From NCBI GenBank assembly GCA_963777955.1, contig CAVZSQ010000013.1, positions 192,001 to 256,000 of the forward strand: a DNA stretch of 64,000 nucleotides, given 5' to 3'. Below are positions 47,528-64,000 of the stretch, one piece after another (within the stretch, counting starts at the first letter, position 1; the number at the start of each line of letters is the position of its first letter). The notes beneath the pieces are model-generated. The model did no database searches, was not told the DNA's origin, and saw only the letters and a program-made list of their open reading frames with translations. The translations under genes and the position numbers were made by a program. This DNA is from Calditrichia bacterium (GTDB lineage: Bacteria; Calditrichota; Calditrichia; JAJRVZ01).

Positions 47528-50500
47528 TTATTCCGGCAAATAATCCAGATTCGCTCCCAACCACTTTTCAGCAGTATGGATATCAATCCCTTTACGCCGG
47601 GCATAATCGAGTACCTGATCACGCGATATTTTGCCTACGCCAAAATAGGATGCCTGGGGATGTGCAAAATAATAACCGCACACCGAAGCTGCCGGCAGCA
47701 TGGCCTGGCTTTCTGTTAAACTGATGCCGGTATGTTCAGTTACCTTCAAAACTCCGAACAGGGTCTCTTTTTCACTATGATCGGGACAGGCGGGATAACC
47801 CGGAGCAGGTCGAATTCCACGATATTTTTCCTGAATCAGGTTCTCGTTATTTAATTCCTCCCCCTGGCATAGCCCCAGTAATCCCTGCGCACCTGTTGAT
47901 GCATTAATTCAGCGCATGCTTCAGCCAGACGGTCCGCCAGGGCCTTCAGTAAAATAGCCTGGTAATCATCATGTTGACTTTCGAACTGTTGAACTTTTTC
48001 CGCGCTGCCGATTCCGGCAGTAACCGCGAACAAGCCTAGATAATCCGGTTTTCCAGAGGATTGCGGAGCGATAAAATCGGCCAGGGCCAGGTTGGTGCGA
48101 TTCTGGCCTTTCTCCCCCTGTTGTCGCAGAGTATGAAAAATCGCCAGGATTTGTTTCCTGTTCCGCTCAGTGAAAATTGTGATGTCATCCCCTGAACTGC
48201 TGGCAGGATAGATGCCGATTACTGCTCTGGCTTGCAACCACTGTTCCTTAATGATTTTATCCAGCATATTCTGTGCGTCAGAGTATAGTTTGGCAGCCTC
48301 GATTCCTGATTCCTTGTCTTCCAGGATCTGTGGAAATTTCCCTTTTAATTCCCAGACCTGGAAGAAGGGTGTCCAATCGATCCGTTGACTGATTTCCGCC
48401 AGAGATAAATTCCGAAACACCTTCGCGCCCAGAAGATTCGGTTCCGGCGATTCGAACAATTCCCAGTTAATGACCAGTTTCCTCCGGCGGGCTTCACTCA
48501 ACGGTAATAATTGCTGGTCCTGATGTTTTTTACTATGCGCATCCCGTACTTTAACATATTCATTGGCTACTGCATTGAGATAGTCCGGTTTGAGTTCCGC
48601 ATTAAGCAAATTATTGACCACGCCTACTGCCCGCGAGGCATCAAGTACATGAATGACTGCACCTTGATAGAGCGGGGCGATTTTAACTGCAGTATGAACC
48701 CTGGAAGTAGTAGCACCGCCGATCAATATCGGCAGATTAATATTTTGCCGCTGAAATTCCCTGGCCACATGCACCATTTCATCCAGGGAAGGGGTGATCA
48801 GACCGCTTAAGCCGATAATGTCGGCCTGGTACTTTTGAACACTTTCTAATATTTTTTCGGCCGGAGTCATCACGCCCAGATCGATCACTTCATAATTATT
48901 ACAACCCAGCACCACGCCGACAATATTTTTACCTATATCATGTACATCACCTTTAACCGTGGCCAGAACAATGGTACCAGCCTTACGATGGGCCATTGCC
49001 GCAGACTGCTGTTCCAGGTAGGGGGTCAGGTAGGCCACAGCTTTTTTCATCACCCGGGCACTTTTTACCACCTGAGGCAGAAACATTTTTCCTGCGCCGA
49101 ACAGATCACCGACAACATTCATACCTTCCATCAGGGGTCCTTCGATGACCTTTAACGATTCTCCTAATGCCTGTCTGGCTTCAGCCGTGTCCTGCTCTAT
49201 ATATTCAACGATACCCTTGATCAACGCATGTTTGAGCCGTTCGGCCACCGGAAGTTGGCGCCAGGCCGGATCTTCAGTTTTGCTCTCCTGCTTATGCAGA
49301 TCTTTACCAATTTGCAGTAATTGTTCGGTGGCCTCTGCGGTCCGGTTCAGCAATAAATTCTCGGCCCGTTGCCTGAGTTCCGCCGGAATTTCTTCATAAA
49401 CCGGCAATTGACCGGCATTTACAATGCCCATATCCAGGCCCGCCTGGATCGCGTGATAGAGAAAAACAGAATGCATGGCTTCGCGGATGACATTGTTGCC
49501 CCGGAAGGCAAAAGAGACATTACTGATCCCGCCGCTGATCAGTGAATCGGGGAACAGTGATTTTAACTCCCGGGTGGCTGCAAAAAAATTGAGGGCATAG
49601 TTATTGTGTTCTTCCATACCCGTACCAACCGCAAATATATTGGGATCAAAAATAATGTCCTGCGCTGAAAAATTCAGTTTTTCAGTGAGTAAACGATAGG
49701 CCCGGCTGAGGATGGCGACTTTACGTTCCATGGTTTCGGCCTGGCCCTGTTCATCAAAGGCCATAACGATGACAGCGGCGCCATACTGCCGGGCCCGGGC
49801 CGCATGCTGTAAAAAGATCTCTTCCCCTTCTTTCAGGCTGATCGAGTTGACAATACCTTTGCCCTGCAGACATTTAAGACCCGCTTCGATTACCGACCAC
49901 CTGGATGAATCGAGCATAACCGGCAGACGGGCAATTTCAGGCTCCGCGGCGATCAGGTTGAGAAAATGGACCATTACTTTTTCCGAATCCAGCAATCCTT
50001 CATCCATATTGATGTCAAGAATCTGCGCACCGTTATCCACCTGTTCCCGGGCCACCTGTACGGCTTCTTCAAAATTTTCTTCAATAATTAGTTTTTTAAA
50101 TCTGGATGAACCGGTAACATTACATCTCTCACCAACATTAATGAAATTTGAATCAGGCCTGACCAGCAGTGGTTCCAGTCCGCTGAAGCAGGAAACTATT
50201 TTCGGTTGTGATATACGACGCGGAATTTTATCGGAAACGATGGCTGCAATTTTCTGAATATGTTCAGGGGTGGTACCGCAGCAACCGCCAACAATATTGA
50301 TAAAACCGCTTCCGGCATATTCACCCAGAATAGCAGCTGTAAATTCCGGTAATTCATCGTAGCCGCCGAAGGCATTAGGCAGGCCGGCATTGGGATGAAT
50401 ACTGACATAACAGTGTGACAAGCGGGACAGTTCTTCGATGAAGGGCCGCATCTGCCCGGCCCCCAGCGAGCAGTTAATACCGGTCGAGAAAAAATCAAAA

Positions 50501-51207
50501 TGTGAAACCGATATTAAAAAAGCTTCCAGGGTTTGACCGGAAAGTGTCCTGCCGCTGGCGTCAATCATCGAGACCGAAATCATTACCGGTATTTTTTTAC
50601 CTGTTTTTTGAAATTGCTCGTCTATAACGTATAGAATAGCTTTGCAGTTTAGTGTATCAAAGACCGTTTCCACCAGCAGCAGGTCGACCTCCCCGTCGAG
50701 CAGACCGCGGACCTGATCACGATAACCGGCTGCAACATCATCAAAGTTAACTCTACGATAGGCGGGCCGGTTAATGTCGGGTGATAATGAGGCGGTCTGA
50801 TTTGATGGTCCGATAGAGCCGGCTACAAAACGCGGTTTAGCGGGTTGCAATTGAGTGAAATCATCGGCCACCTGGCGGGCCAGTTGCGCAGACCTGAAAT
50901 TCATTTCATAGACTGTGTCGCTTAATTGATAATCCTTCTGGGATAGACTGTTGGCATTGAAAGTATTCGTCTCAATAATGTCGGCACCGGCATGAAAATA
51001 CTGACGATGAATGGTGGCGATCTCCTCCGCCTGGGTAAGTGATAAAAGATCCGTATTGCCCTTCAGATCGACGGGATGATCTTTAAACCGTTCACCGCGG
51101 TAATCTGTTTCCTGCAGTCCCAACCGCTGGGTCATGGTACCCATCGCGCCATCAAGTACCATGATGCGTTGATTCAATATTTCCTGCAAAATCCGTGTTT
51201 TATTCAT
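47528..51207 (-). CDS. metH: Cobalamin-dependent methionine synthase (frameshift at G-run ~47862)
   Basis: [44 protein letters not shown] and YFAHP in the downstream frame. Confidence 0.96.
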
Positions 51208-57457: not shown

Positions 57458-59221
57458 TTAAGGTTCTGAAAAAGTATAAATAGTCATCCCCCAGCTGGTT
57501 TTATCACGTGGCGGATCAGAATTCCAATCTCCGTAGGCATGGCTATCATCGGTGCGATAGTGAGCAACATACGTACCGGCATCCAGCAAAATCGTTCCAT
57601 CAAACAGGCGGTTCTTCTCTGCACCACCGGCCCGGCGGGTGTCTTTAAATTTCATTTCCCAGATCGTATCACCGCTTTTAAAATCCTCGATCCAGCCATA
57701 ATCGTACATTTCATCCCAGTCCCCTTCTCCCAAAGCATAGATCCGGACATGGGTGGATTTCTTCAGGGTAAATTGTTTCTTGACATTTTCCGAGTCGCCG
57801 ATGCGCACCATCTGTACTATAATATTCCGGTCTGCCTCGGGATTATATTTTTGAATAAAATTTTCATCGTCTGTTTTTCCGACAGTATATATTTTTATTC
57901 CCCAGTCTTCCGGATTACGCGGGCTGTCGCTGTTCCAATCACGATAGGAATGGGAGTCATCGGTTTGAAAACAGACTTCATAAGATCCGGCATCAAAAGG
58001 AATGACCCGGTCATACAATCTGTTCTTTTCGGCTCCACCTGCTTTTTCGGTATCATTATAATCCATAATCCAGACATTACGGCCGGTTTTGACATTTTCA
58101 ATCCAGCCGTAGTCGGACATCTTTCTCGAACTTCCTTCACCGACAGCATAAATGCGCAGTTTCATCGGCCGCAGCAGGGTAAATCCTTCATTCACCTCTT
58201 CATAGTCTCCCAACCGATCTAATTTTACTACCAGGACTCCTTCTTTCCGCTCATAATTGGCAATGGCATTTTTATCGAAATCCTCATTACTGCCTGAGAT
58301 GGTAATTCCCCAGAAATTGGGATCATAAGGAGGATTGGAATTCCAGTCCTCATAACTATGATTGTCATCGCTTATAAAATGAACCATATAATCGCCGGCG
58401 TCAAGTTGTATCTCTTGTCTGCTTACCCTGTTTTTAATCGCACCTCCGGCATGTTCGGTCTCAGATTCCTCCATCTCCCAAATTTTATTATTCTTATTTT
58501 CATCCTGAATGTAGGCATAATCGTACATCTGACCCTTATAACCCTCGCCAATCGCATATATTTTCAAACGAACCGGACGCAAAACAGAAAAACCCGCCTT
58601 TACATCTTCAGCATTGCCGACCCTGGTCAGACTCAGGATGGCAGAATTTTTAACCGCATTCTGATATTTCAGCACCGCTGATTCTTCAAATATATCATCA
58701 ACCCCTTCAACCTGCACCTTCCATTTATCCATCAGGTCATCCCACCAGGAATCACCATGGAAAATTTTATGCTTAATTTTATCCCAGCCGAGCAGTCCGC
58801 CTTCGTATGAATAATAGGAAGGTTTAATACTGGCGAAGTAAAGTTCATATTCACCCTTGTCCAGTGGAACCTCTCCGTTGAACTTACGGATATATTTATC
58901 CCACCAGTCGCTCCTGGTATTTTCGATGGTCATGCGCCAGGCTAATTCACGGGTGCGGGCATTGATGATCCAGGCATAGGCGAACATATTCTGGGGATCT
59001 ACCTGAAAATTAGGTGTGCGCTTGATTTCCTTGTCTCCGCCTGCCCCAACTGCTGCAATTTTAACAGTTCTGGCCGTGTTCAGGGTAAATCCGTACATTT
59101 TGATACCCTGTTCGCGGATATCGGAAATAGTAATCGTGTTATCCTGTCCATACATAATAGCAGGCAAGACTAACAGACAATTACATAAGACTATAATACC
59201 CGTGGTTATTTGCTTTTTCAT
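57458..59221 (-). CDS. Exported protein with four tandem ~115-aa repeats
   Basis: Signal peptide from ATG 59221; repeats IYAxGEG...DY(G/A)(W/Y)I...W.M...AGGA.KNR...DAG.Y...DD.H.Y.DWN..P....WG..I. Confidence 0.88.
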   Translation of the reverse strand: MKKQITTGIIVLCNCLLVLPAIMYGQDNTITISDIREQGIKMYGFTLNTARTVKIAAVGAGGDKEIKRTPNFQVDPQNMFAYAWIINARTRELAWRMTIENTRSDWWDKYIRKFNGEVPLDKGEYELYFASIKPSYYSYEGGLLGWDKIKHKIFHGDSWWDDLMDKWKVQVEGVDDIFEESAVLKYQNAVKNSAILSLTRVGNAEDVKAGFSVLRPVRLKIYAIGEGYKGQMYDYAYIQDENKNNKIWEMEESETEHAGGAIKNRVSRQEIQLDAGDYMVHFISDDNHSYEDWNSNPPYDPNFWGITISGSNEDFDKNAIANYERKEGVLVVKLDRLGDYEEVNEGFTLLRPMKLRIYAVGEGSSRKMSDYGWIENVKTGRNVWIMDYNDTEKAGGAEKNRLYDRVIPFDAGSYEVCFQTDDSHSYRDWNSDSPRNPEDWGIKIYTVGKTDDENFIQKYNPEADRNIIVQMVRIGDSENVKKQFTLKKSTHVRIYALGEGDWDEMYDYGWIEDFKSGDTIWEMKFKDTRRAGGAEKNRLFDGTILLDAGTYVAHYRTDDSHAYGDWNSDPPRDKTSWGMTIYTFSEP

Positions 59222-59366: not shown

Positions 59367-59577
59367 AAATTTTCAGAAATTTTCAGCAGGATAATGCCGG
59401 ATCAGCAAGAATAGTTTTATTTTAACTACGTGTTTATATTTATTTCGTTTCATTTTTACTCAATTTATAATATCATAGCAAGAGTATTTTATTTACATTT
59501 ATTCTTTATAGCACCTAAAACATTTTTTCAGCAAATATTAAGTTTTGCTGTAATTACCATTTCCCGGGAGAATAAAA

Positions 59578-61080
59578 ATGTCAGGTCAAATACGCTTTGA
59601 CAACACGGATAAAGATTTTATTAACTGGCTGGGTACTGTTTCAGCCTTCGCTGAATTAGATAAAAAGGAATTAGCGGCGGTAAGCCGGATCCTGAAAAAA
59701 TATGAATATGAACCGAACGAAATCGTCATCAGGGAAGGTGAAACCGGATCATCCGCCTTTATCGTAGCCGCAGGCCATTTCAGTCTGGAGATCAGGGAAC
59801 GGGTGATCAAGACATTCTCAGCGGGTGATTTTTTTGGAGAAATTGCCCTGATCGATGCGCGCCCCAGGATGGGTACCGTGCGGGCACTGACAGCGGGCAG
59901 TATCCTGGTTATGGACAAGAAGGATCTGGAAAATGAAGAACTGCTGGCGGCCAGGATATCTCTGAAACTATACCAGGCCTTTGCCCGGATGGTGACTTCT
60001 TATATGCGCGAAAGCAGCGACCTGTACAATGAAATGGATGTATTGCTTATCCAGGATGGCGGTTGTGCACCCGGTTATAATCCAATTACCGCTTTTCTTA
60101 CCGAGCACCTGGAAAAAGCAGGACGCAAGATCTATATTTCCGCCGAAGGTTTTAAATCTATCGTATCCAACCGCACTCAGGACTATCGCCGCCTGATCCA
60201 CAATCCGGATCTGTACCGCGAGCTGGAGCAGATTCCGGGGGTGATCTTTGCCCCGCCTCTGCGTGAAGCCCGCGGAGCTGATTTCCGGACAGAAAGGTAT
60301 CCCGAATTCAAGGAAGAACAAAACCAGCAAATCGCAGCCAGGAATATTATCGCCCGCCATATAAAAGTCGTTGTCGGAATCGGGGGTAATGGCACTTTTG
60401 CCGGGATCAGGGCCCTGAGTAAAATCCTTCCTGATTCGGTTCAAGTTTTCTTTATCCCGGTTACCATCGACAGCGATATTTTTGGTACGGATTGCATCGG
60501 CGAATATACCGGCGTGGAAGTCGGAGCCGAAAAGATCCGCAGTTACATGGCCGATGCCCGGACCCATAAACGTTATTATTTTATCGAAATGATGGGCGCA
60601 CGCGGTGGTTATCATGCCCTGCATTCCTGCCTGGGTGCCGGGGCACACCTGGCCGTACTCCCCTCTTCCCATCATGATCCGGCAAAAATAATACCCGCCT
60701 TGTTGCGGCGTGATTCAGTGGTGATCGTAATCGCTGAGGGATACAAGCAAAAAGAACGACAGTCTCAGAACTATACAGGTAATGCCGCAGAATTCTTCCG
60801 GGATGAACTGCTGGCGGCTGGTTTTAAACCTTTACGTCGTATTGTATGTGAAGGATATTCCCGTGATATTCGCGGTGCGGCGCCTAACAATCTGGATATC
60901 ATGCTGGCCCAGCGCATGGCGCGCAAATTAACATCGATGGTGCAAACCGGTCAAAGTAAAAAAATGCCGGCTGTTTTATCCGGGCATGAATCGAGTATCG
61001 ATTTTGATGATATCCGCACCGATAATTCGGTGGAATCGGGACTGGCCTCGCTGGCCAACCGGTTAACACCTGATTTATAA
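59578..61080 (+). CDS. Cyclic-nucleotide-binding domain fused to divergent 6-phosphofructokinase domain
   Basis: N-term IREGE.G...FFGEIALIDARPRMGTVRA; from aa ~153 QDGGCAPGYN, IGGNGT, PVTIDSD, IEMMG, IAEG. Confidence 0.88.
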   Translation: MSGQIRFDNTDKDFINWLGTVSAFAELDKKELAAVSRILKKYEYEPNEIVIREGETGSSAFIVAAGHFSLEIRERVIKTFSAGDFFGEIALIDARPRMGTVRALTAGSILVMDKKDLENEELLAARISLKLYQAFARMVTSYMRESSDLYNEMDVLLIQDGGCAPGYNPITAFLTEHLEKAGRKIYISAEGFKSIVSNRTQDYRRLIHNPDLYRELEQIPGVIFAPPLREARGADFRTERYPEFKEEQNQQIAARNIIARHIKVVVGIGGNGTFAGIRALSKILPDSVQVFFIPVTIDSDIFGTDCIGEYTGVEVGAEKIRSYMADARTHKRYYFIEMMGARGGYHALHSCLGAGAHLAVLPSSHHDPAKIIPALLRRDSVVIVIAEGYKQKERQSQNYTGNAAEFFRDELLAAGFKPLRRIVCEGYSRDIRGAAPNNLDIMLAQRMARKLTSMVQTGQSKKMPAVLSGHESSIDFDDIRTDNSVESGLASLANRLTPDL

Positions 61081-61099: not shown

Positions 61100-62167
61100 T
61101 CAGTCTACATTAATGATATAAGCCTTACCGCCAACAGCTTCGATGGCTGCTGCTGCTTTTTGCGGATTTTCCGGTGCATAGGCAAACATACAGCCCCCTC
61201 CACCCGAACCGTTGATCTTGCCACCCAGTGCACCGGCCCGATTTGCTGCGACTAACATGCTTTCAATTTTTGGGGTACTGATTTTTAGATGTTTGTTTAA
61301 GATTTCCTGATGGTATTTAAGCAGCCGGCCGAATTCAGAATGATCAAACTCCCGGGCTTGAAAACATTTCTTTGCTTCCCTGGTAAGATCACGATTTGCA
61401 AAGGCTCCATACAAAACTTCTTTTTGGACCGCAGTTATCAGATTACCGAATCGTTCTACATCCGCAGACGTACAATCAAATAAATTGAAGGTAGATTCGA
61501 CCTGCTTTATTTTCTGCACTGCTTCCGACACACCGAATTTAACCCGGGCCAGGATTTCCTTTGTGTCTTTAGGCTCCAGGGAATCCCCCAGGACAAAACT
61601 ACCCAAGCGGTTCTCCAGCATTTCATAACGAACTTCATCCTTAAAATCAATGTACAAGACACCCCCAATGGCCGTGGCATAATGATCCATCATTCCACCC
61701 GGTTCAGCAAATTCCACTACTTCACCCAGATGACCGAGACGCGCCACGTCGGCCGGGTCTGAAAATTTTATCTTTAATTCCGGAGAATGTTCGATCAGGA
61801 ACCTGGCCCAGGCTATGATCAGTGCTGAAGATGAAGATGTGCCGGAATTGATCGGTATATGCCCCTGTACTTTACAATGATACCCATTGTCCAGTCGCAG
61901 GCCATGGCGCAGAAGAACGTTGATCATACTGCGGAAATAATCCCTTTCCTGCCCATAGGAAATTTCCTGTCCGATTGGCGGCAAAGGAATTATTTCACGG
62001 GAATTAATGTCCGGCAGATCAATGCGTATTCGACGTTCCTTATGCGGCTTTCCGCTGATCGCCAGCCGCAGATTTATAGCTGCCGTGATCACCGGCAATT
62101 TCAAGTAGTCCTGATGCTCCCCGAACAGGCAGATCCGTCCGGGAACAGAAACGCGAACGCCTTTCAT
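61100..62167 (-). CDS. GHMP kinase, galactokinase-like
   Basis: PGRICLFGEHQDY, IPINSGTSSSSA, GGMMD, KINGSGGGGC. Confidence 0.9.
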   Translation of the reverse strand: MKGVRVSVPGRICLFGEHQDYLKLPVITAAINLRLAISGKPHKERRIRIDLPDINSREIIPLPPIGQEISYGQERDYFRSMINVLLRHGLRLDNGYHCKVQGHIPINSGTSSSSALIIAWARFLIEHSPELKIKFSDPADVARLGHLGEVVEFAEPGGMMDHYATAIGGVLYIDFKDEVRYEMLENRLGSFVLGDSLEPKDTKEILARVKFGVSEAVQKIKQVESTFNLFDCTSADVERFGNLITAVQKEVLYGAFANRDLTREAKKCFQAREFDHSEFGRLLKYHQEILNKHLKISTPKIESMLVAANRAGALGGKINGSGGGGCMFAYAPENPQKAAAAIEAVGGKAYIINVD

Positions 62168-62175
62168 TTTCTGTT

Positions 62176-62976
62176 TTAACCTGGGTGAAAGTTTGCAGGG
62201 GATCCAGGAGGATCTCCCGGTTGTTCAGCATTTCTTTTTATCCTCTGCTGCAATTCACGGGTACCTGCAATCAAATCTTCTCTGGTATTGATACCAAAAG
62301 TCAGAAATGGATCATCTACCGGAATTGCTTCCACTCTTTCACCACTACCGGCAAGAATACCGATCACATCGGGTAAATAATATTCATTTTGAGCATTTTT
62401 ATTATTTACCCTGGCCAGCGCGGGAAATAATTTTTTTATATCAAAACAATAATGCGAGGAACTCACCTCTTTTATTCTTCTTTCATCTGCAGTCGCATCT
62501 TTCTCCTCCACGATCCGCAGCACCCGACCGCGGGCATCCCGCACCACTCGGCCATAAGGCGGGGGCGAGTCATAAATGCTGGAAAGAAATACTGCTGCCA
62601 GATCTGACTGCTGCTGGTGCTGGATCAAAGATTGCATGATGCTGCTGGTGATAAACGGACCATCTCCAACCACTACTACCAGACTTCCGGAAAAACCTTT
62701 TAACCATTGTTCGGCAACCATAACGGCATGGGCACTTCCTGACTGCTCCTGCTGTAAAATGTAATCCACCCGTTTACCAAAAATCTTTTCCACCTCCTCA
62801 TGAATATGATTACCGACAACCAAACCGATCCGTTCGATCCACTCGAATTCCAGTGCTGCAACCACATATTCTATCAAGGTTCTGCCCAGAATCTGCAGCA
62901 GAACTTTGCTTTTCTCCGATTTCATCCGTTTACTTTTTCCGGCGGCCAGCACCAGAGCCCGCACTGGTTTAACCAT
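62176..62976 (-). CDS. Sugar-1-phosphate nucleotidyltransferase (GlmU N-terminal domain only)
   Basis: LAAGKSKRMKS..SKVL, Q.EQ.G.AH, YGRVVR...IVEEKDA, NAQNEYYLPD, GINT; ends at 266 aa without a hexapeptide-repeat acetyltransferase domain. Confidence 0.9.
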   Translation of the reverse strand: MVKPVRALVLAAGKSKRMKSEKSKVLLQILGRTLIEYVVAALEFEWIERIGLVVGNHIHEEVEKIFGKRVDYILQQEQSGSAHAVMVAEQWLKGFSGSLVVVVGDGPFITSSIMQSLIQHQQQSDLAAVFLSSIYDSPPPYGRVVRDARGRVLRIVEEKDATADERRIKEVSSSHYCFDIKKLFPALARVNNKNAQNEYYLPDVIGILAGSGERVEAIPVDDPFLTFGINTREDLIAGTRELQQRIKRNAEQPGDPPGSPANFHPG

Positions 62977-62988
62977 GCCTATAATCCA

Positions 62989-64000
62989 TCAATTGCTATT
63001 TACTCTCAGATACCCACCTGCAAAATATACGATCATGCCGGTGACTGCTATTAAAGAAGCATAGGGCCACCCACCGCTTGCGGATATCACCCCTCCGATA
63101 AAAAGAATCACCCCGCTCAGATAAATCAACAGACTTAATTTACCAACCCTGCTTTGAGGCACAATATTATAAATATCCCCGCTGTCTATTTCTTCCTGAC
63201 TGCTATGCTTGGCCTGCCAGACATTTTTTATCTTATCCGCTGCTTCAGGTCTGGTCAACAAACTCACCAGTGGAGTGACTACCAGTGCTGCTCCGGCACT
63301 GATAAAGGTAGTAATATTGAAATCATAATTCAGAACGAATTGCCCGATAATTCCGGCTACTGCTCCAGCCAGGTAGCCGATAATAGCACCGCTTGCCGTA
63401 CTGCGCTTCCAGAGTAATCCATAGAAAATACCGACAATGAATAATGGCATATCCATTATACCAATAATCGTCAGGTAGGCTTCCACAGCCCCTTTTTGCG
63501 GTACCCATAAAGCGAATATAATCATTAATATACCGATGATCAGGGTCATAAACCGGGCAATGAACAATATTTCCTTCTTACTTGCTTTACGCTTGATCAG
63601 ACTTTCGTAAATATCATTTGTAAACAAAGTTGCTACACCGTTCAGATTTCCGGAGATGGTAGAAAGTTGGGACGAGATCAAGCCACACAAAACCAGCCCC
63701 AAAACAACCGGCGGCAATAATCTCGATAACAGCAGCGGAATCGCCTGATCGGCATTCTGCAACCCAGGATACAATACCGCAGCAGCCAATCCAGGTAAAT
63801 TCCATAGCAGGGCGAACGGAGTAGTGATAATGCCGGCCAGAACCAATCCCTTGGCCACGGTACGGGTATTTTCGGCAGCAAAGGCGCGTTGCAGCAAACC
63901 CTGATCGACACTGGCCCATTCAATGCCTAATAAAAAGATCGCCAGTATAAATTTCCAGTTATAGGTCCCCGTCTCACGTACCAGAGTAAAACTCATCGCC
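62989..64000 (-). CDS. Sodium:solute symporter (SSS) family, 5'-truncated by window edge
   Basis: DQGLLQRAFAA, DQAIPLL, SSQLSTISGNLN..ATLFTNDIY, many TM helices; frame open to the edge. Confidence 0.9.
   Translation of the reverse strand, partial: AMSFTLVRETGTYNWKFILAIFLLGIEWASVDQGLLQRAFAAENTRTVAKGLVLAGIITTPFALLWNLPGLAAAVLYPGLQNADQAIPLLLSRLLPPVVLGLVLCGLISSQLSTISGNLNGVATLFTNDIYESLIKRKASKKEILFIARFMTLIIGILMIIFALWVPQKGAVEAYLTIIGIMDMPLFIVGIFYGLLWKRSTASGAIIGYLAGAVAGIIGQFVLNYDFNITTFISAGAALVVTPLVSLLTRPEAADKIKNVWQAKHSSQEEIDSGDIYNIVPQSRVGKLSLLIYLSGVILFIGGVISASGGWPYASLIAVTGMIVYFAGGYLRVNSN

Follow-up and report, generated by a model that had tools for sequence, protein, structure and literature searches.

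A phosphofructokinase-fold protein family with a cyclic nucleotide-binding or receiver domain: candidate signal-gated sugar kinases of bacteria

Introduction

In bacteria, cAMP acts on metabolism mostly via transcription factors, and phosphofructokinase (PFK) is controlled by ADP and PEP. The window analyzed here, a stretch of 64,000 nucleotides from a Calditrichia bacterium, contains a gene in which a cyclic nucleotide-binding (CNB) domain is joined to a kinase domain of the PfkA fold. This locus raises the question of whether a PFK-type enzyme could be placed directly under the control of a cyclic nucleotide. A preliminary description had proposed that the protein, hereafter CNB-PFK, is either a cyclic nucleotide (cNMP)-regulated kinase or a pseudo-enzyme.

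Gene, domain architecture and structural model

The gene (P0001, 500 aa) is located at positions 59578-61080 of the window, on the plus strand, like all CNB-PFK features given below. It forms a single open frame from ATG to TAA. A Shine-Dalgarno-like GGGAG, read from the sequence, stands seven bases 5' of the ATG (59566-59570), and the identical stretch precedes the ATG of the nearest relative, L006. Scans for promoters, terminators and CRP boxes gave matches not above chance. Two Pfam domains were found above their cut-offs, namely cNMP_binding (PF00027; aa 43-119, E 1.8e-16, 60.3 bits versus 27.5) and PFK (PF00365, IPR035966; aa 155-453, E 1.1e-41, 143.5 bits versus 30.9), in agreement with the intact 500-residue frame with a CNB and a PfkA domain that had been described. 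The protein falls below every NCBIfam PFK cut-off (best 127 versus 253 bits; 103 versus 371 bits for the TIGR02482 equivalog).

The CNB core (aa 43-119, 59704-59934, in a fold spanning approximately aa 12-124) aligned with E. coli CRP and with CNB proteins of the same genome at an hhalign probability of 99.6, and the kinase domain (aa 152-497, 60031-61068) aligned with PFK at a probability of 100. A 27-residue helix (aa 125-151, 59950-60030) connects the sensor with the strand that opens the PFK domain and bears the near-invariant residues Y142 (119 of 121 homologs) and R144 (120 of 121). No helix-turn-helix family match, as expected of a CRP/FNR-type C-terminus, was found in P0001; the CNB helix leads into the PFK domain. 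The AlphaFold2 model, built from a 48-row alignment, has a mean pLDDT of 87.9, and DSSP shows that helix 125-151 is continuous in this model into the strand preceding the GGCAPG loop. Residues 152-500 superimpose on S. aureus PfkA (5xz7; Z 33.3, rmsd 2.4, 313 residues aligned), and the N-terminus on the CNB-B domain of PKA RI-alpha (5kjx; Z 17.4). Modelled alone and without an alignment, the CNB domain gave a pLDDT of 40, which is too low for use. The homodimer prediction, with a score of 0.05, counts neither for nor against a dimer.

A conserved family with exchangeable sensors

A word-seeded search gave 579 matches among 8000 candidates. Of the 120 listed, 119 have both domains (57-97% identity), and the remaining one is a fragment of 358 aa; the fusion is thus distributed well beyond this locus, a point on which the preliminary description had proposed a check. 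A GTDB search yielded 123 loci, of which 80 were retained, from Calditrichota (nearest, 86%), Chlorobiota, Bacteroidota, Desulfobacterales and other delta lineages, and one Leptospiraceae. The CNB-PFK gene is present in 24 of the 86 genomes of the window's phylum. The architecture already exists in databases under automatic names, and in the ESM Atlas it matches only its own cluster of 72 members. Two deep-branching CNB-PFK proteins, P0126 and P0128, have low-complexity extensions and an eukaryotic-looking composition, and group together in trees.

Relative to L006, dN/dS was 0.149/1.21 (approximately 0.12) for the CNB part and 0.044/0.71 (approximately 0.06) for the PFK part, and dN/dS was low, indicating purifying selection, in all seven pairs examined (L006 and six others). 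The CNB part evolves two to three times faster than the kinase part. Conservation among homologs together with purifying selection rules out a sequencing error or a decaying gene.

When the kinase domain alone was used in a HMMER scan, with Pfam then applied to 23 of its matches, it was also found behind a receiver (REC) domain or without any sensor. The 80 GTDB loci comprise 44 of the CNB type and 36 of a REC clade, 34 of the latter with a receiver motif; the REC forms are those of Desulfobacterales. Their phospho-acceptor aspartate is kept in 28 of 36 (three gaps, five substitutions) and the lysine in 31 of 36. In two REC-clade members, L073 and L082, the receiver has shrunk to a short stub, a natural loss of the sensor. 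The sensor-less clade is large, with 439 matches at E 1e-30, among which fused forms may be included, and the names in it include Sandaracinus, Nitrospinota and Caenarcaniphilales.

With FastTree (131 rows), the CNB, REC and sensor-less forms fall into one clade with a support of 100 and a stem of 1.16 changes per site, in which the sensor-less forms are sister to the fused forms. IQ-TREE (34 rows) confirmed this split at 100/100. REC forms are basal in FastTree (CNB clade 85); since the IQ-TREE support is 68/77, we claim no order of sensor gain. The spacing between sensor and enzyme is nearly fixed: 115 of 121 homologs have a distance of 74 residues from the cassette glycine to GGCAPG and five have one of 71, and the distance from the receiver lysine to GGCAPG is 43 residues in 34 of the 36 REC-clade loci.

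The catalytic site

Residues were compared in 46 CNB-clade rows, 39 REC-clade rows (two without a receiver), six sensor-less rows and 62 outgroup rows of the PfkA type; the fragment L048 was left out. E. coli PfkA served as the numbering reference, and the MAFFT register was cross-checked by hhalign profile alignment. The outgroup was drawn from the query's own matches and is hence biased towards the query.

All motifs quoted in the preliminary description were located, namely GEIAL and PRMGTV (aa 87-101), QDGGCAPG (159-166), GGNGT (269-273), PVTIDSD (294-300), MGA (339-341) and SRDIRG (428-433), and its mapping also stands: the catalytic-base aspartate is kept as D298, while the aspartate of GGDG and the arginine of MGR are replaced by N271 and A341. 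Ten residues are invariant in all 91 family rows: Arg72, Gly102, Gly104, Gly108, Asp127, Asp129, Arg162, Met169, Glu222 and Arg252. Position 125 is threonine in the fused forms and serine in the sensor-less forms.

With regard to the phosphoryl donor, glycines at 104 and 108 form the ATP signature GGDGSxxG, whereas Asp104 marks PPi-dependent and Ile108 ADP-dependent enzymes (PMC11609450, PMC10339645). In P0001 the corresponding GGNGTFAG motif (60382-60405) has G272 and G276 at these positions, an ATP-type cleft, with N271 in place of Asp103. The same two sources give Asp127 as the catalytic base and Asp129 as the Mg ligand, and both are found, with Thr125, in PVTIDSD (60457-60477; T296, D298 and D300), in which position 124 is a valine (V295) and not the lysine of PPi-type enzymes. 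G272, G276, V295, T296, D298 and D300 are invariant in 121 of 121 homologs. PPi as donor was therefore rejected, the Pfp signature of Asp104 and Lys124 being absent, as was ADP, whose GGDGSxxI signature is contradicted by G276 at position 108.

The QDGGCAPG loop (60052-60075; TSGGDAPG in E. coli) keeps Gly11, and its GGCAPG part is invariant in 121 of 121. Asp12 is replaced by Cys163 (60064-60066), which is present in 85 of 85 fused-clade rows and absent from sensor-less members. Two further cysteines of the fused clade, Cys306 and Cys424, are likewise near-fixed.

The two altered motifs are not errors. At position 103, asparagine occurs in 110 of 121 homologs and aspartate in nine; at position 171, alanine occurs in 115 and arginine in four. 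Four GTDB loci (L040 and L045-L047) carry GGDG and MGR together. As aspartate and arginine recur in this way, we regard both changes as reversible traits of the family. GGNG is also found in 29 of the 62 ordinary PfkA-type outgroup rows, a set biased towards the query. The D103A variant of E. coli PfkA reportedly has a kcat lower by some tens-fold; data on E. coli Asp103 mutants were not found in the literature searched. The R171S variant loses approximately 75% of its kcat, and its KM hardly changes (PMC11808435). The loss of Asp103 and Arg171 is real, and its effect would probably be mild.

These observations bear on the reading of CNB-PFK as a pseudo-kinase which would sense sugar phosphate and cNMP and signal by protein contact, like the trypanosome PGK-CNB. 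Asp103 and Arg171 are altered together in most members, and TbPGKL offers a precedent for a CNB on a dead glycolytic domain (PMC4106842). The base, the Mg ligand and the ATP cleft are nevertheless invariant in 91 rows, while in TbPGKL, and likewise in the regulatory halves of eukaryotic PFKs, such sites have been lost (PMC4106842, PMC12203962), and some CNB-PFK members have both canonical residues. CNB-PFK has no further output domain, and a search for fused forms of 876-2500 aa gave none at E 1e-30, which is weak evidence in the same direction. We consider a pseudo-kinase very unlikely; of the two options in the preliminary description, the regulated kinase is thus supported and the pseudo-enzyme disfavored, inasmuch as each residue whose loss abolishes PfkA catalysis is conserved without exception in the 91 rows.

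On the acceptor side, the segment 60571-60600 extends from R332, equivalent to Arg162, a 6-phosphate ligand from the neighboring subunit, to MGA (Met169, Gly170 and A341 for Arg171). The SRDIRG motif (60859-60876; GHIQRG in E. coli) has R429 for His249 and R432 for Arg252, MAFFT and hhalign giving the same register, and R429, D430 and R432 are invariant in 121 of 121. As His249 is replaced by an invariant arginine, three basic residues (R332, R429 and R432) are retained at the 6-phosphate. The equivalent of Arg243 depends on the aligner: R421 with a two-residue insertion according to hhalign, V423 according to MAFFT. In the set that binds fructose 6-phosphate (F6P), Arg171 is thus alanine, His249 is arginine, Arg243 is aligner-dependent, and the other six residues are retained.

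An active cNMP-gated kinase acting outside glycolysis, on a different sugar phosphate or on some small phosphorylated acceptor, whose product may itself be a signal, would fit several of these features. The sugar site differs from that of all characterized PfkA in having Ala for Arg171, Ser for Asn128, Val for Gly124, Ser-Arg for Gly248-His249 and an invariant Glu425; S299, E425, S428, R429, D430, R394 and C163 are family-specific invariants around the acceptor site; at 52 positions, a residue that is nearly constant in the fused clade is seldom found in the outgroup; and the long stem separates the clade from other PFKs. Against this, the equivalents of the fructose-contacting residues Thr125, Asp127, Met169, Glu222, Arg252 and Arg162 are all retained, active F6P kinases differ from one another at His249 (PMC10339645), and no conserved nearby pathway gene suggests another substrate. 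We regard a substrate outside glycolysis as unlikely; nothing found in this analysis demands such a shift.

Loss of the effector pocket and properties of the sensor

The canonical ADP/PEP effector site, which we take to consist of Arg21, Arg25, Arg154, Glu187, Lys211 and Lys213, corresponds in P0001 to A172, E176, M324, H357, a gap and R378, so that one of six residues is kept. Across the family, position 21 is A, G or S, position 154 is M or L, position 187 is H or D, and position 211 is a gap. The 62 outgroup rows have arginine at 21 in 44, arginine or lysine at 154 in 29 and 15, glutamate or aspartate at 187 in 27 and 23, and arginine or lysine at 211 in 22 and 8. Positions 54 and 59 (Arg54 and Asp59) fall inside an insertion and have no mapped equivalent. 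Glu187 is described as an effector-site residue of PfkA (PMC10339645). The family has lost the ADP/PEP effector pocket. This loss, and the replacement of the CNB by a receiver within the same enzyme clade, are the main points that the preliminary description had missed.

With regard to the sensor, the phosphate-binding cassette (aa 86-101, 59833-59880) contains G87, E88 and R97, which are present in 120, 116 and 120 of 121 homologs, respectively, P0001 included. The base-selecting position, M98, is Met in 59, Thr in 48 and Leu in 10 of 121, and cAMP and cGMP can therefore not be told apart as ligands. Arg123 of CRP is not conserved. When the CRP alignment is extended, Y142 comes to lie at the place of Thr127 of CRP and is a candidate base cap.

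Some of these features would also suit an active PFK-type kinase whose CNB fold reads another nucleotide or metabolite, or serves assembly only. The G-E...R pattern of the cassette is intact in 37 of 45 loci and degenerate in eight, 69 of 121 homologs have Met or Leu as the base-selecting residue, CRP Arg123 is lost, a sensor-less sister clade exists, and the CNB evolves faster than the kinase part. The near-invariance of G87, E88 and R97 argues for a cNMP ligand instead, and the replacement of the CNB by an intact receiver, at a fixed spacing, speaks for a signal input. We therefore consider a CNB that does not read cAMP or cGMP rather improbable.

Genomic context and companion phosphofructokinases

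The CNB-PFK gene stands alone, with a divergent gene of unknown function on one side and a convergent operon resembling sugar salvage on the other. The divergent gene (57458-59218, minus strand) encodes a 586-aa protein with a signal-peptide-like start and no Pfam match, and is divergent from CNB-PFK in seven related neighborhoods. Recurring WGI/DDxHSY-like segments were seen by eye in this protein, and self-BLAST showed no internal repeat. Its ESM Atlas matches are several clusters without a name, with 96-412 members and for the most part from Bacteroidota and Acidobacteriota; it is a widespread family to which Pfam assigns no function. The convergent genes (61100-63999, minus strand) encode a sodium:solute symporter, a short GlmU-like nucleotidyltransferase without the acetyltransferase part and a GHMP kinase resembling galactokinase, none of which reaches its equivalog cut-off, and possibly form a sugar-salvage operon of unassigned substrate. 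This operon is conserved in no related neighborhood, and its genes were rejected as a partner system, no GHMP-kinase match being found in 83 related loci. Elsewhere in the window, a 1118-aa ORF (47851-51207, minus strand), presumably methionine-synthase-like, ends abruptly within its apparent C-terminal activation domain, and a frameshift or truncation is possible.

In three neighborhoods unrelated to one another (L031-L034, L028 and G018), the gene next to CNB-PFK encodes a class III cyclase, against a rough chance expectation of 0.06-0.18 with assumed gene counts; this adjacency argues against a CNB that does not read cAMP or cGMP. The G018 case is a post hoc observation, and the CNB-PFK gene there is interrupted, lying in two frames. 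In that locus (L177, 2183-6506), a histidine kinase, a receiver-cyclase and CNB-PFK follow each other in one direction; adenylate cyclases usually have a lysine at a position where the G018 cyclase has a glutamine. The genome of the window has five class III cyclases. Since cyclases occur in 85 of the 86 phylum genomes, with or without CNB-PFK, their presence in a genome is uninformative alone.

Co-oriented central-carbon neighbors were found in three lineages, namely glycogen phosphorylase (L042), PPDK (L029 and L030) and PEP carboxykinase (L057, L066 and L074). The link is a weak one, the majority of the 58 neighbors scanned being unrelated; most CNB-PFK neighborhoods are neither conserved nor contain sugar genes. 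For the sensor-less members, no glycolytic gene was found among 51 neighbors scanned at a strict threshold, and no conserved operon was seen in the 74 of 76 metagenome loci analyzed (L175 and L176 were omitted for weak matches). In L010 and L081, a GGDEF-EAL gene lies immediately upstream of the CNB-PFK gene on the same strand. A metallophosphoesterase encoded 3' of CNB-PFK in L028 and L041 was considered as a cAMP phosphodiesterase and rejected, given its signal-peptide-like start and the lack of a NCBIfam match.

The genome of the window has five PFK-A genes. As the other four are, by motif, two PPi-like, one ADP-like and one with Asn108, P0001 is the only one with a full ATP cleft. Other PFK-A genes were present in all six genomes checked. 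Among the phylum genomes that carry CNB-PFK, 9 of 24 also have a TIGR02482 member above the cut-off, as do 2 of the 62 lacking it; these genomes, being kin, are not independent. Because of this co-occurrence in 9 of 24 genomes, we regard CNB-PFK as accessory and reject it as a general replacement of canonical PfkA; the 9 of 24 and 6 of 6 counts would also suit the substrate outside glycolysis considered above. No class I FBPase was found in the genome of the window, which is 92% complete. The PFK-A paralog of L002 (G000, C15) reads GGEGSQQI, close to the ADP signature GGDGSxxI of PMC11609450, and is a candidate ADP-PFK outside cyanobacteria.

Proposed mode of action and significance

CNB-PFK consists of a CNB domain connected by one helix to a PfkA domain with the ATP cleft, the base, the Mg site and a three-arginine sugar-phosphate site, without the effector residues. 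From these features we infer activity, substrate, ligand and direction of control. The reading that we favor, at somewhat better than even chances, is that CNB-PFK would be an accessory ATP-dependent kinase of F6P or a close ketose phosphate, gated by cAMP or cGMP. With ATP as donor, it would phosphorylate F6P, or a close ketose phosphate such as sedoheptulose 7-phosphate, at O1, and would probably turn over more slowly than the E. coli enzyme. A cyclic nucleotide in the cassette, cAMP or cGMP, would shift the C-helix (aa 125-151), whose motion would set the state of the kinase, because the helix continues into the strand bearing the GGCAPG loop. This could switch the kinase on or off, activation being the guess towards which we lean slightly. 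In Desulfobacterales, the same helix would be driven by phosphorylation of the receiver aspartate. The entry step of glycolysis could thus come under an outside signal and not the energy charge, beside ordinary PPi-, ADP- or ATP-type PFKs.

More broadly, we see about even chances that these proteins form an undescribed PFK branch, spread over at least five bacterial phyla, that abandoned the ADP/PEP pocket and placed an interchangeable cNMP sensor or receiver on the helix that runs towards the active site, so that second-messenger and phosphorelay signaling would have the committed glycolytic step, or a related step of sugar-phosphate metabolism, as its direct output. If so, a PFK under direct cyclic-nucleotide control, together with a sister form that answers to a histidine kinase, would mean a new way of controlling glycolysis and a further clade for a textbook enzyme family, and these bacteria may switch sugar breakdown directly by cell signaling. 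The CNB, REC and sensor-less trio offers a natural comparison of sensor-enzyme coupling, and a signal-switchable PFK, if confirmed, would be a handy part for metabolic engineering.

Comparison with known systems

CNB-PFK belongs to the PFK superfamily, outside canonical allosteric PfkA, Pfp and ADP-PFK. Canonical PfkA is a homotetramer that converts F6P and ATP into FBP and ADP. Compared with the bacterial ATP-PfkAs of E. coli (1PFK), G. stearothermophilus (3PFK/4PFK) and S. aureus (5XZ7), it has the same fold (Z 31-33, rmsd 2.3-2.7, approximately 310 residues), in line with the check by structure prediction proposed in the preliminary description, and shares the Gly104/Gly108 cleft, Asp127, Asp129, Arg72, Arg162, Met169, Glu222 and Arg252. 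It differs from them in being only 21-26% identical and below the equivalog cut-off, in lacking the effector residues and in forming its own clade, with an insertion of approximately 20 residues (aa 200-227), N271, A341, R429 and an N-terminal CNB or REC domain. The PFK of Myxococcus is reportedly activated by Pkn4 phosphorylation; signaling would control both enzymes, through a separate protein kinase there and through a fused module in CNB-PFK.

With Group III and the PPi- and ADP-dependent PfkAs (TIGR02483, Pfp and cyanobacterial ADP-PFK; PMC11609450), CNB-PFK shares a like fold, the absence of a canonical effector site and variation at His249. It conforms to neither the PPi nor the ADP signature, since it has no Asp104, Lys124 or Ile108.

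The family is real, conserved and uncharacterized in the literature searched. In agreement with the earlier statement that the fusion is not known as characterized, a full-text search, with most subscription journals outside its coverage, turned up no study of a PFK fused to CNB or REC. The available part of a 2025 review of the superfamily describes no such fusion, contains neither "cyclic" nor "receiver", and anticipates new fusions (PMC12203962). In 2014, Pfam reportedly contained no CNB fused to a glycolytic enzyme (PMC4106842).

Fusions of a sensor to an enzyme are known from other systems. The mycobacterial cAMP-activated acetyltransferase Pat (NF058543; PMC12607858) likewise has an N-terminal CNB followed by an enzyme, and its profile matches aa 23-105 of P0001 (E 5.3e-6); the output is a GNAT in Pat and a predicted sugar kinase in CNB-PFK. 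The REC-PFK relatives share the logic of response regulators in which REC is joined to thioredoxin reductase, PPDK or other enzymes (PMC5847659), a paper in which "phosphofructokinase" does not occur; in the PFK clade, REC and CNB alternate on one enzyme. Kinetoplastid PGK-CNB (TbPGKL) and PAS-PGK (PMC4106842, PMC7729029) also combine a glycolytic enzyme with a sensor domain. In TbPGKL, the catalytic and the cNMP-binding residues have been lost (PMC4106842), whereas both sets are kept in CNB-PFK.
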